A stretch of 57,255 nucleotides of DNA, from NCBI GenBank assembly GCA_012523265.1, contig JAAYIU010000162.1, forward strand, positions 1 to 57,255, in the 5' to 3' direction. Below the pieces are notes generated by a model that did not search any database, had not been told where the DNA came from, and saw only the letters and a program-made list of their open reading frames with translations. This document shows positions 16,856 through 42,408 of the stretch, in pieces; the stretch's first letter is position 1; the number at the start of each line of letters is the position of its first letter. Both the position numbers and the translations under genes were made by a program. This DNA comes from Bacteroidales bacterium. GTDB lineage: Bacteria > Bacteroidota > Bacteroidia > Bacteroidales > 4484-276.

Positions 16856-18274
16856 TCACGAATTATTTTTTGTGAGTGGCGTTAATCCGTGGGCACTTCC
16901 AATCTCGAGCATCAATTGCCAGGCCTGCTCAAGGCTGTTGTCGATGCGGCCATCGAGAATGGCTTCGCGGATGGCTGTTTTTATCTCGCCCACAATCCTT
17001 CCGGGCTTAATGCCAAAAGTTTCCATGATAAGCTCACCGCTGATGGGTGGCTGCCAGTTGCGCAGGCGGTCTTTCTCTTCTATCTCCACCAGTTTGTGAC
17101 GCACCAGCTCAAAATTTTTGCGGTAACGCCTGATTTTCTCCGGTATCTTCGACGACATGTCGGCCTCGCACAAAGTCATCAGGTCGTCGATGTCGTCGCC
17201 GGCATCGAAGAGCAGGCGGCGTATGGCCGAATCGGTCACCAGCTCTTCGGAGAGGACGATGGGTCGCAGATGCAACAGCACCAGCTTTTGTACGTATTTG
17301 AGCTTCTCGCCGGCAGGCAGCTTCAGGCGTCTGAAAATGGCAGGCACCATTTTGGCGCCCACAAAGTCGTGCCCGTGGAAAGTCCAGCCAACGCCATCCG
17401 CCCAGCGTTTGGTGCGCGGCTTGCCGATGTCGTGCAGGATGGCAGCCCACCGCAGCCAGAGATTGTCGGATGCTGCAGCCACATTATCCAAAACTATCAG
17501 CGTGTGATAGAAATTATCTTTATGACCAATATTATCCTTGTATTCGGCACCCTGAAGTGCCACCATCTCCGGAAAAATAAGTTGCAACAAACCCGTGTCG
17601 AAGAGCAGCCTGAAACCCGTCGAAGGTTTTTCGGCCATAATAATTTTGTTGATCTCGTCGGTGATGCGCTCCTGCGAAATGATGCTGATGCGATGTGCGT
17701 TGCGTGCGATGGCCTCGAAGCTCTTCTGTTCGATGGTGAAACCCAGCCGTGTGGCAAACCGGATGGCGCGCAGCATGCGCAACGGATCGTCGGAATAGGT
17801 GATATCGGGGTTGCGCGGTGTGCGGATGATCTTTCTCTCGAGGTCGCCGGCGCCGTCGAAGGGGTCGATGAGACGGCCGTAATCCTCTTTGTTGAGGCTG
17901 ATGCTCATGGCGTTGATGGTGAAATCGCGCCGCTGCTGATCGTCTTCCAGGGTACCATCTTCCACAATGGGATTGCGCGAGGTGCGCTGGTACGATTCCC
18001 GCCGCGCTCCCACAAATTCTATCTGCCAGTCGTGATAGCGCAGCATGGCGGTGCCGTAATTTTTAAAAACCTGCACATGTTCATTTCCAATCTTGCGTCC
18101 TACGGCCTGCGCCAATTCAATACCGTGACCCACCACCACAATGTCGATATCCTTGCCGGGGTTGCCCAGCAAAAGATCGCGCACAAAACCACCCACCACA
18201 TAGGCAGGGAGGTTCATTTGATGGGCTGTATCTGATACAAGTTCAAAAACAGGATGTCGTAGCTGTGACTTCAC
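16856..18274 (-). CDS. tRNA nucleotidyltransferase (CCA-adding) / poly(A) polymerase family protein with HD domain
   Basis: YVVGGFVRDLLLGNPGKDIDIVV (NTase GG..DxD), RRDFTINAM, DPLRMLRAIRFA, and HD region ILHDIGKP..HGHDFVGA. Confidence 0.85.
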   Translation of the reverse strand: MKSQLRHPVFELVSDTAHQMNLPAYVVGGFVRDLLLGNPGKDIDIVVVGHGIELAQAVGRKIGNEHVQVFKNYGTAMLRYHDWQIEFVGARRESYQRTSRNPIVEDGTLEDDQQRRDFTINAMSISLNKEDYGRLIDPFDGAGDLERKIIRTPRNPDITYSDDPLRMLRAIRFATRLGFTIEQKSFEAIARNAHRISIISQERITDEINKIIMAEKPSTGFRLLFDTGLLQLIFPEMVALQGAEYKDNIGHKDNFYHTLIVLDNVAAASDNLWLRWAAILHDIGKPRTKRWADGVGWTFHGHDFVGAKMVPAIFRRLKLPAGEKLKYVQKLVLLHLRPIVLSEELVTDSAIRRLLFDAGDDIDDLMTLCEADMSSKIPEKIRRYRKNFELVRHKLVEIEEKDRLRNWQPPISGELIMETFGIKPGRIVGEIKTAIREAILDGRIDNSLEQAWQLMLEIGSAHGLTPLTKNNS

Positions 18275-18287
18275 GAGAAATGGAAAT

Positions 18288-18527
18288 GGTAGTAATTAAT
18301 TGAAATTGATGGTAATTAGTAATTTTTGGTAATTGATAGTAATTGATGGTAATTGATTGTAATTTGTGGTAATTGATTGTAATTGATAGTAATTGATGGT
18401 AATTGATTGTAATTTGTGGTAATTGATTGTAATTGATTGTAATTTGTGGTAATTGATTGTAATTTGTGGTAATTGATTGTAATTTGTGGTAATTGATTGT
18501 AATTTGTGGTAATTGATTGTAATTGAA
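18288..18527. repeat. Exactly 10-bp-phased tandem array (~24 decamers GTAATTGATT / GTAATTTGTG / GTAATTGATA / GTAATTGATG)
   Basis: From 18331 to 18521 every 10-nt block of the printed sequence begins AATT, which is 20 consecutive in-register units. 20-bp and 40-bp higher-order units are visible. More degenerate units lie at 18288-18330. Confidence 0.95.
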
Positions 18528-18548
18528 AACGCCCGAAGGGCAAATTAC
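18527..18548 (-). terminator. Possible short terminator hairpin after pfkA
   Basis: The minus strand reads GCCC-TTCG-GGGC followed by GTTTTC, about 40 nt after the pfkA stop. The stem is only 4 bp, so this call is weak. Confidence 0.3.
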
Positions 18549-18582
18549 GCACAGCAAATTTCCTCACCCATCTTACTATTTC

Positions 18583-19677
18583 TTAGTCGCCAAAGCTGAT
18601 GCCGATACCACGGGCTGTTTTCATCAGGGCGGTTTCGTTATCCACCAGGTTGGGCTGCAGCAAAGCCTCGGCCAGCGACACGCTGGTGATGTAGGGATGC
18701 CGGTAAGATACCATGCGCCCAAACTCTCCGGCGAGAACCATCTCAAAGGCCTTCACGCCAAACTGCGTGGCCAGAACACGGTCGTAAGCTATAGGAATAC
18801 CCCCGCGTTGCAGGTGGCCGAGCACGGTGGTACGGATGCTGTGTTCGCAGCCGGCCTCTTTAAGTTGGTTCATCAGCACGTTGGCAACGCCGCCAAGACG
18901 ACGGTTTTCGTAGCCAATCTCTGCCTGACTAAGTGTGGAGTAGTCGCTGCCTATGGCACGGGCGCCTTCGGAGATCACGATGTTGACAAAACCACGGTCG
19001 CGCATAAAGCGATCGTTCACATGTTTGAGCACTTTATTGATGTCGTACGGAAACTCGGGCAGGATACATATCTCGGCACCGCCGGCAACGGCAGCATTCA
19101 ACGCTATCCATCCGGCATAACGCCCCATCACCTCGAGTATCATCACCCGGTTGTGGCTGGCTGCCGTAGTCACCAGTTTGTCCACTGCCTCGGTGGCAAC
19201 CTGCACAGCCGTTTGAAAACCAAATGTCGAATCGGTGGCAGAGAGGTCATTGTCGATGGTCTTGGGCACTCCAATTATGTTCAGACCCATATCGAACAGT
19301 TGCTGTGAAATGCGCTGCGAGCCATCGCCACCAATATTTATCACGGCTTCTACACCCAGATATTGCAGCTTTCGCAGCATCTCTTCGGAGCGATCCACAG
19401 TAGTCCACGAACCGTCGTTGTTTTTTATAGGCCAGGCAAAGGGGCCGCCTTTGTTGGTGGTTTGCAGAATGGTGCCTCCCCGGTAATGAATACCGGCTAC
19501 TTCCTCCTCGTCGAGAATCACTATCTCAGTAGGCTCACGCAAAACGCCATTGAAAGCCTCGATACTTCCTACAATCTCCCATTGCTTTTCGACGGAAGCG
19601 CGTTTTACAATGGCTCTGATTACCGCATTTAAACCAGGGCAGTCGCCGCCACCGGTCACTATCAAGCATCTTTTCAT
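18583..19677 (-). CDS. pfkA: 6-phosphofructokinase (PfkA family)
   Basis: LIVTGGGDCPGLNAVIRA, INIGGDGSQ, GVPKTIDNDL, MGRYAGWIAL, LGHLQRGG. Confidence 0.9.
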   Translation of the reverse strand: MKRCLIVTGGGDCPGLNAVIRAIVKRASVEKQWEIVGSIEAFNGVLREPTEIVILDEEEVAGIHYRGGTILQTTNKGGPFAWPIKNNDGSWTTVDRSEEMLRKLQYLGVEAVINIGGDGSQRISQQLFDMGLNIIGVPKTIDNDLSATDSTFGFQTAVQVATEAVDKLVTTAASHNRVMILEVMGRYAGWIALNAAVAGGAEICILPEFPYDINKVLKHVNDRFMRDRGFVNIVISEGARAIGSDYSTLSQAEIGYENRRLGGVANVLMNQLKEAGCEHSIRTTVLGHLQRGGIPIAYDRVLATQFGVKAFEMVLAGEFGRMVSYRHPYITSVSLAEALLQPNLVDNETALMKTARGIGISFGD

Positions 19678-42202: not shown

Positions 42203-42408
42203 ACCGACAAACTGCGCTTTCTTGGTTTATTACAAATGAAAATTTTGAATATCGAATATTGAATACTGAATCTTGAATATCGAATTAAAACCCCGTAAGG
42301 CGAGTAAAGCGGAAAGCCCGTCAGCCGCCCTAATGTCTTAAAAAGTAAAAACAGGGGCATGCGGTTTTTTTTAAGAAATCATCAACTTTTTCAACCGCAC
42401 TAAAAAAG

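Follow-up and report, generated by a model that had tools for sequence, protein, structure and literature searches.

Results

Structure of the decamer array

The window analysed here is the 57,255-nt contig JAAYIU010000162.1, which belongs to a metagenome-assembled genome (MAG) of an uncultured Bacteroidales bacterium (476 contigs, 47.5% GC, 93% complete; G000 hereafter). A tandem array of decamers beginning with GTAATT lies at 18288–18527. It takes up most of the 308-bp spacer between a pfkA-like phosphofructokinase gene with a PFK domain (18583–19677, minus strand), its upstream neighbour, and a cca-like gene for a tRNA nucleotidyltransferase of the CCA-adding/poly(A) polymerase family (16856–18274, minus strand; PolyA_pol head, RNA-binding and HD domains). 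The GTG start of cca at 18274 was backed by the conservation of GTGAAGTCACA in three congeners. The outermost GTAATT of the array, which belongs to the degenerate units described below, is 17 nt from this start, while the pfkA stop is 58 nt from the nearest GTAATT core on the other side.

The core of the array (18319–18528, plus strand) consists of 21 GTAATT-N4 decamers with GTAATT starting at 18319, 18329 and so on to 18519, giving 20 spacings of exactly 10 bp over 210 bp. At the cca-proximal end (18288–18318, plus strand) about three degenerate units are out of register, with GTAATT at 18292 and 18312 and spacings of 20 and 7. Six unit types make up the core, namely GTAATTGATT (nine copies), GTAATTTGTG (six), GTAATTGATA and GTAATTGATG (two each), GTAATTTTTG and GTAATTGAAA (one each), and the dominant ones are told apart by their last four bases (GATT nine times, TGTG six times, GATA and GATG twice each). 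Tandem Repeats Finder reported period 20 (11.9 copies, score 295) and period 40 (5.9 copies, score 326) over 18292–18526, and also period 50. The 20-mer GTAATTGATTGTAATTTGTG stands in four exact tandem copies at 18429–18508 (plus strand), and sequence comparison revealed an exact 50-bp duplication at 18329–18428 (plus strand), in which 18329–18378 equals 18379–18428 and the unit order GATA-GATG-GATT-TGTG-GATT occurs twice. A first-pass annotation of the window, made from the sequence, had described about 24 decamers in perfect register for at least 200 bp, with higher-order units, filling the pfkA-cca spacer. These counts, the spacer length and the flanking genes agree with it, as does its statement that the array is not a CRISPR: the units are contiguous and no unique spacers separate them.

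The plus strand of 18288–18527 contains 71 A, 0 C, 57 G and 112 T (GC skew 1.0), and the minus strand accordingly holds 0 G and 24% C. Each frame has 12–16 stop codons on the plus strand and 0–1 on the minus strand, so that only the latter is open, with reading frames at 18243–18557 and 18316–18567. That these encode a repetitive peptide is the least credible of the explanations considered here. The openness is a trivial consequence of a strand free of G, the reading frame is shifted by the 9-, 10- and 20-bp unit changes that separate one copy from another, the frames overlap the conserved start region of cca, and Pfam returned nothing above its curated cut-offs for the repeat frames, the sub-threshold hits being noise. 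Moreover, most decamer arrays face genes with the strand that has stops in all frames. The earlier view that the array is non-coding is thus retained.

Support for the assembly

An independent metagenome contig, Ga0172382_10005545, whose 1500-bp flank is 99.93% identical, carries this array with its units in identical order. That contig has 21 GTAATT motifs instead of 23 and one 20-bp unit fewer (three copies of GTAATTGATTGTAATTTGTG, not four). Exact copy number is uncertain in any short-read assembly, and this 20-bp difference is either biological or an assembly error. A repeat collapsed, expanded or made chimeric by short-read metagenome assembly was named in the first-pass annotation as a possible refutation. 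The fragmentation of the source into 476 contigs, the location of three of eight G000 arrays at contig ends and the disagreement between the two assemblies of the locus speak for such an artefact. The independent contig, the array at the orthologous site in the assembly of another species (G002) and the length of the longest exact repeat block, 80 bp and below usual read lengths, speak against it, and we regard an artefact as highly improbable.

Length variation at orthologous loci

In the congener G002, whose CCA protein is 93% identical to that of G000, the pfkA-cca array is 482 bp long with 47 units, as against 233 bp and 23 units in G000, and the two genes are about 520 bp apart. Twelve steps of 9 bp among thirty-one of 10 bp occur in the G002 array and helical register is not kept. 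In G005 and G007 (CCA proteins 92% identical), the gene pair is kept with a spacer of about 120 bp and no array. In relatives further removed, this spacer contains a terminator-like hairpin together with a canonical TAnnTTTGC box. At both ends the G000 spacer can still be aligned to array-less G007 (GGAAATTTGCTG beside the pfkA stop, CCAAAAATT...ATTTCC beside the cca start), so that the array appears to interrupt an older spacer, about 120 bp long, in its middle part.

Four G000 arrays have orthologous arrays in G002, and their lengths differ 2- to 5-fold. Besides pfkA-cca, these are the arrays at the 3′ end of a LuxR-type gene (96 bp in G000, 476 bp in G002), in the CorC-SurA spacer (166 and 325 bp) and at the 3′ end of a pullulanase gene (at least 126 and 246 bp). 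The CorC-SurA spacer carries no array in G005, G007, G004 or G008; locus L028, considered as a third ortholog of this site, was rejected as not orthologous. The prediction that copy number varies between strains is therefore borne out by the 23 and 47 units at the orthologous sites, and one 20-bp unit is missing from the 99.9% identical contig, where an assembly error is possible.

The CorC-SurA spacer is an indel hot spot in its own right. G005 has about 290 bp at the site of the G000 array, and a stretch of about 200 bp downstream of CorC is common to G000 (contig C238, L097) and G005 (contig C10, L105) and absent from G002 and G007. This stretch may contain a small antisense open reading frame.

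A dispersed decamer family

Arrays of GTAATT decamers occur at eight or more loci of G000 (contigs C72, C133, C217, C238, C252, C307, C346 and C413). As three of these eight lie at contig ends, the true number is probably higher. A 26-nt pattern spanning three units matched 8 of 41 related genomes, with 117 matches in G002, where arrays reach about 480 bp. When one genome per prokaryotic species was scanned, the decamer pattern was present at 52 loci in 23 assemblies, 17 of which are labelled Bacteroidota/Bacteroidales and one 'Clostridia', the remaining five being other MAGs. The first-pass annotation had proposed looking for the array elsewhere, a random scatter pointing to an ordinary satellite. 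The arrays are indeed scattered, although not at random, with a preference for the 3′ ends of genes.

The 'Clostridia' record (Clostridia bacterium isolate INTA.CYC.150, SABY01; L021, L029, L032, L034, L035, L045, L049, L054, L058, L066 and L068) has contig coordinates identical to those of G002, and its pfkA, cca, CorC and pullulanase genes are 87–95% identical to those of G000. Its title looks like a mislabel, G002 being placed in the same genus as G000. The five other MAGs carry the labels Bradymonadales, Gammaproteobacteria, Nitrososphaerales, Thiomicrospira and Omnitrophota; their arrays (L036, L038, L057, L060, L061, L070 and L072) are on contigs that are short and of low coverage and that are probably binning contaminants from Bacteroidales. 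Only four of 2.9 million viral contigs matched the decamer pattern, two of them giant-virus MAGs, and a phage or plasmid vector for the spread of the decamer was rejected on this count.

From 710 units in 62 runs the family consensus is GTAATT[G/T][A/G]T[D]. Positions 1–6 (GTAATT) and 9 (T) are nearly invariant at 1.78 bits or more, the figures for positions 1–6 being inflated because the units were collected by a GTAATT seed. G or T is found at position 7 and A or G at position 8, while position 10 is freely A, G or T, with C in 4 of 710 units. The literature search returned no paper describing the GTAATT decamer, its matches being incidental primers or sequences.

Other satellites of the genome

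G000 has 382 tandem-repeat loci in 4 Mb, of which 164 have periods of 7, 14 or 21, and the pfkA-cca array ranks third in length. Among the G000 satellites, periods of 7 or 8 bp prevail. Arrays of the heptamer GAACAAC gave 28 pattern matches in G000 and 38 in G002, compared with one in G005 and two in G007. Unrelated satellites have thus proliferated together in the G000/G002 sub-lineage, which points to a general mutational propensity rather than a function specific to the decamer. No lead to a trans-acting cause of this growth emerged, as mutS, mutL, rho, RNase HI and RNase HII domains were present in all five genomes tested.

Several of these repeats were recorded individually. Arrays of the octamer ATCATCAC at C404:1173-1416 and C302:2672-2907 of G000, with about 30 copies and 240 bp each, are as long as the decamer array, and further G000 heptamer families include AAATTCC, GTGAGCG, AGAAGTG and others. 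Other tandem repeats of the window, at 42241–42285, 1786–1817 and 1658–1874, are AATATTG (6.4 copies), GAATATC (4.6 copies) and a 95-bp unit (2.3 copies) containing CGAAT-type heptamers. In other Bacteroidales MAGs (L037:6053-6100, L064:2759-2800, L059, L033, L044 and L065), decamer arrays are directly joined to AGTTATC heptamers, CATCAATAAC decamers, GATTGAAT octamers or GAGAAAT heptamers, forming compound repeat blocks in single spacers.

A second satellite often stands beside the decamer arrays, on their 3′ side in the GTAATT orientation. Its 24–25-bp units combine a GC mini-hairpin (GCGAAGC / CCGAAGG type) with CAAATTAC, the reverse complement of GTAATTTG, and it was found in G000 at C72:12653-12851, C383:2034-2120, C74:1-82 and C307:2557-2660. 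In the window a fragment of about 1.5 units occupies 18527–18563 (minus strand). The word CAAATTACG is concentrated in this satellite; its enrichment over the whole genome was rejected (14 and 16 occurrences against 15 expected). The hairpin beside the array was likewise rejected as a member of the two-hairpin REP-like family of the window, the sequences being unrelated. At C72:12256-12609 (L098:1457-1810), between a LuxR-type gene and a porin gene, the two satellites flank a 117-aa 23S_rRNA_IVP (four-helix-bundle) gene in what resembles a small cassette: the gene starts 19 nt past a decamer array, and the hairpin satellite comes after it.

Position and strand relative to genes

The placement of decamer arrays was examined with a symmetric test, in which the GTAATT strand was set on top and genes of at least 100 codons were considered to abut an array if they ended within 12 nt of it or took their stop from its first unit. 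A gene stop lay within 12 nt of the array start in 13 of 45 cases on the GTAATT-sense side and in 1 of 44 on the opposite side and strand. The 13 cases correspond to about 11 independent loci after G000/G002 orthologs were collapsed. Real genes, among them CorC, the LuxR-type gene and pullulanase, end 4–19 nt before the first decamer unit, while the distances to downstream starts are mostly above 50 nt. The same asymmetry was found among all satellites: for 125 short tandem repeats of G000 with GC skew of at least 0.3, tested symmetrically for a gene end within 25 nt, a co-directional gene end abutted the repeat in 49 of 117 cases on the G-rich-sense side and in 7 of 111 on the C-rich-sense side. 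Examples of such repeats are C238:6530-6698, C72:12141-12236 and C217:1-153. The satellite itself supplies the stop codon in 26 cases.

Short operonic spacers were rejected as the cause of the abutting stops, since the CorC-SurA spacer measures 200–370 bp in array-less relatives and the array lies exactly at the stop. The pfkA-cca array has the rarer, inverse orientation, in which the pfkA stop is followed by 58 nt with a GC mini-hairpin, the array in AATTAC sense, 17 nt and the cca start. A terminator between the stop and such inverse arrays was rejected as a rule, because no consistent hairpin was seen and other satellites often intervene.

Part of the stop rule can be explained by purifying selection, whereby an array touches a gene end only with its all-frame-stop strand. 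With the other strand at the gene end the protein would run on through the repeat, hence selection against such placement. Purifying selection does not account for how often arrays sit at stops. Candidate causes of the rule are a real function at the 3′ end or an expansion, linked to transcription, of untranslated RNA regions with a G skew. We found no description of a strand-asymmetric association of such repeats with stop codons in the literature searched, and an asymmetry this reproducible (49/117 against 7/111) calls for a mechanism, whether anti-read-through selection, transcription-linked expansion or 3′-end function.

In a more speculative reading, the decamer arrays and other C-poor satellites could be oriented gene-boundary elements that start at the stop codon or supply it, with a C-free 3′ RNA to which Rho is blind and a core readable by protein, the pfkA-cca copy being an inverted one. 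We consider this an unlikely alternative. If it were true, the satellites would not be junk: the arrays would carry stops in all three frames, the 3′ RNA would be G-skewed and prone to R-loops, and the invariant GTAATTG core would be readable by some protein. The inverted pfkA-cca copy would then put a G-free, Rho-loading leader of strain-variable length before a housekeeping gene.

Transcription of cca

Promoters of Bacteroidota, such as those of the Bacteroides sigma-ABfr type, carry TTTG / TAnnTTTG elements. As the array is free of G in the direction of cca, it cannot hold these elements, and no TAnnTTTG box was found on either strand of the pfkA-cca spacer. In the cca direction the relaxed pattern nAnnTTTG had one match in the spacer, a putative −7 box GAAATTTG at 18555–18562 (minus strand), which aligns with GGAATATTTGCTG of array-less G007; another match lies at 18598 inside pfkA. 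Sigma-70-like ATTACA-16-TACAAT matches in the array were discounted, since TTTG / TAnnTTTG is what the primary sigma factor of Bacteroidota recognises. Just past pfkA the minus strand contains a weak terminator-like hairpin, GCCCTTCGGGCG (stem 18542–18530) followed by TTTTC. The array had been placed in the promoter region of cca by the first-pass annotation, which our promoter search does not support. The implied device specific to the cca promoter also fares badly, because decamer arrays occur at many unrelated loci and G005 and G007 have the same gene pair with no array.

Because the array holds no canonical Bacteroidota promoter and ends 17 nt before the start codon, cca is most likely transcribed through it, by read-through from pfkA or from the weak GAAATTTG box beside the pfkA stop. 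The resulting leader would be 240 nt long, G-free and unstructured, with a length that differs between strains, probably as a by-product. Rfam gave no match for the array RNA, and the minus-strand RNA folds no better than shuffled sequences (z = −0.8). In composition, and in composition only, the leader resembles a rut site over its 240 nt, such sites being unstructured RNA that contains C, is poor in G and extends for about 80 nt or longer in a host with Rho; a Rho_RNA_bind domain match indicates that rho is present in G000.

Translation can start without a Shine-Dalgarno sequence in Bacteroidota and on G-poor leaders, of which the omega sequence of tobacco mosaic virus (TMV) is an example. 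The leader might accordingly act at the RNA level, as a pad that loads Rho and dampens pfkA read-through into cca or as a structure-free platform for such initiation. Its lack of G with 24% C, its failure to fold, the presence of rho and the lack of a TAnnTTTG box in the 17 nt between array and start codon all fit this idea. The TMV 5′ leader is likewise G-free, with ACAATTAC three times, and shares CAATTAC with the array units, a likeness that is resemblance only (PMC9502800). We nevertheless judge an RNA element improbable, given the terminator-like hairpin ahead of the array and the expression of the same gene pair by array-less relatives. Most decamer arrays, furthermore, face the other way and give a C-free sense RNA right after a stop, so that G-free RNA cannot be the purpose of the family, and its effects are treated here as a by-product.

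Curvature and phasing

Strong intrinsic curvature had been predicted for the array, and both dinucleotide wedge models reproduced it. The predicted end-to-end distance of the 240-bp array relative to its contour length was 0.66 (Bolshoy-Trifonov) and 0.58 (De Santis), below both the background medians (0.945 and 0.959) and the 1st percentiles (0.73 and 0.84). Exact helical phasing as a selected property is not supported, in that the G002 ortholog mixes in 9-bp units and most G000 satellites have 7- or 8-bp units; the 10-bp period looks incidental in a repeat-rich genome.

The phased AATT motifs might nonetheless form an architectural element, either a curved segment or a platform for cooperative binding of a nucleoid or other DNA-binding protein, which would modulate cca transcription or the local structure of the chromosome. 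This is consistent with the 21 units in exact 10-bp register, the curvature beyond the 1st percentile in both models, the 6–7-bp core that many genomes keep invariant alongside a free spacer position, and the predominance of 10-bp steps, by far the commonest in all arrays. We still consider it unlikely. The phase is broken in G002, arrays at orthologous sites vary 2- to 5-fold in length, and in sister species two of these sites have no array and the family is almost missing. The same genomes hold many 7- and 8-bp satellites with similar positional behaviour, the flanking genes are unrelated housekeeping genes, and no candidate binding protein was identified.

Discussion

We conclude that the pfkA-cca array is probably a non-coding satellite generated by slippage and one locus of a new, lineage-specific, dispersed decamer family, (GTAATT[G/T][A/G]T[D])n, a reading to which we assign a probability of roughly 0.6. 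The array is most likely a satellite and not a control device of cca because it is dispersed, variable in length and missing from close sister species, and a dedicated promoter device for cca is unlikely. Replication slippage or unequal recombination would create the arrays of the family and alter their length; comparison of copies revealed length steps of 10 bp and 20 bp. They would accumulate in the intergenic DNA of the G000/G002 sub-lineage alongside several unrelated satellites. At the present locus, the array and the fragment of the second hairpin satellite would have arisen inside the ancestral spacer of about 120 bp, so that the distance between the genes grew to 308 bp in G000 and to about 520 bp in G002. 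The strong predicted curvature would be a by-product, not a designed function.

Several observations weigh against this satellite interpretation. The stop-codon and orientation rule (13/45 against 1/44 for the decamers, 49/117 against 7/111 for skewed satellites) is not predicted by pure slippage. The core is very uniform across genera and position 10 is free, which looks like a constrained motif with a spacer; judged from the units themselves, this uniformity might stem from a binding site, or from a constraint specific to one strand, and not from neutral drift. In addition, the identical unit is found at dozens of loci, a spread that the satellite interpretation does not explain.

On the satellite interpretation the pfkA-cca locus alone matters little, its curvature and its place before cca being incidental features of a hypervariable satellite. 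The decamer family as a whole accounts for many of the points at which contigs break off in MAGs of this group, and its arrays offer a ready marker for strain typing by variable-number tandem repeats.

Comparison with known repeat systems

Phased A-tract DNA, as in bends of the kinetoplast type, has AnTn tracts once per helical turn. The decamer array resembles it in its phased AA/TT tracts, with AATT each 10 bp for 21 turns, and in a predicted curvature above background. It differs in that its tracts are no longer than A2T2, in that the G002 ortholog does not keep the phasing and in its period of 10.0 and not about 10.5, for which a superhelical rather than planar path is expected. Iteron and centromere arrays, such as the iterons bound by plasmid Rep proteins and the 11-bp repeats of R1 parC bound by ParR, likewise consist of roughly 10-bp units repeated directly and in helical register, an arrangement able to form a protein-coated superhelical platform. 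Such arrays belong to plasmid or phage replicons and have a rep or par gene next to them, whereas no rep or par gene adjoins the pfkA-cca array, which is flanked by the chromosomal housekeeping genes for phosphofructokinase and the CCA-adding enzyme, and the decamer family is found at dozens of loci and is almost absent from viral contigs.

Phase-variable contingency repeats, exemplified by the AGAT repeats in the 5′ untranslated region of Moraxella uspA2 (as cited in PMC4679880), are also tandem repeats with a signal upstream of them and a start codon downstream, and their copy number, too, differs between strains. The present array lies outside both open reading frames with only a relaxed box upstream of it, and its neighbours are the housekeeping genes pfkA and cca and not surface, virulence or restriction-modification genes. 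Its unit is 10 bp, its length runs to hundreds of bp, and the family elsewhere is mostly at gene 3′ ends.

The closest counterparts are repeats of short units in other prokaryotes. Direct repeats of the heptamer TAACTGA are known from Beggiatoaceae, Cyanobacteria and some Bacteroidetes (Paludibacter, Gramella and others), and the STRR heptamers of Cyanobacteria are similarly dispersed (MacGregor 2015, PMC4679880). These share with the decamers dispersed intergenic arrays of one unit containing TAA and TGA, a patchy spread that includes Bacteroidetes, up to about 40 copies, shorter repeat-free spacers in close relatives and contigs that often end in arrays (PMC4679880). The decamer period is 10 and not 7, although its core TAATTGA is one base off TAACTGA. 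The TAACTGA arrays of Beggiatoa lie just upstream of start codons, within a few nt and in forward orientation (PMC4679880), while the decamer arrays start at stops and the pfkA-cca copy is inverse.

The long simple sequence repeats (LSSR) of prokaryotes have units of 5–11 nt, with heptamers dominant, according to the survey of Mrazek et al. (2007) as relayed in PMC4679880. On that account, LSSR share with the decamer array head-to-tail short units that run far longer than expected by chance, many mostly intergenic loci, sporadic phylogenetic spread and whole-unit length changes attributed to slippage. The decamer differs from what is relayed there in its 10-nt unit, heptamers dominating both that survey and G000, in spanning several Bacteroidales genera and in its strand-asymmetric association with stop codons. 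Its unit falls within 1–11 nt (Tandem Repeats Finder scores 295–326), it occupies several unlinked loci (eight contigs of G000) and it is polymorphic in length by whole units. The decamer arrays belong to the bacterial LSSR, like the cyanobacterial STRR and the TAACTGA heptamer arrays.

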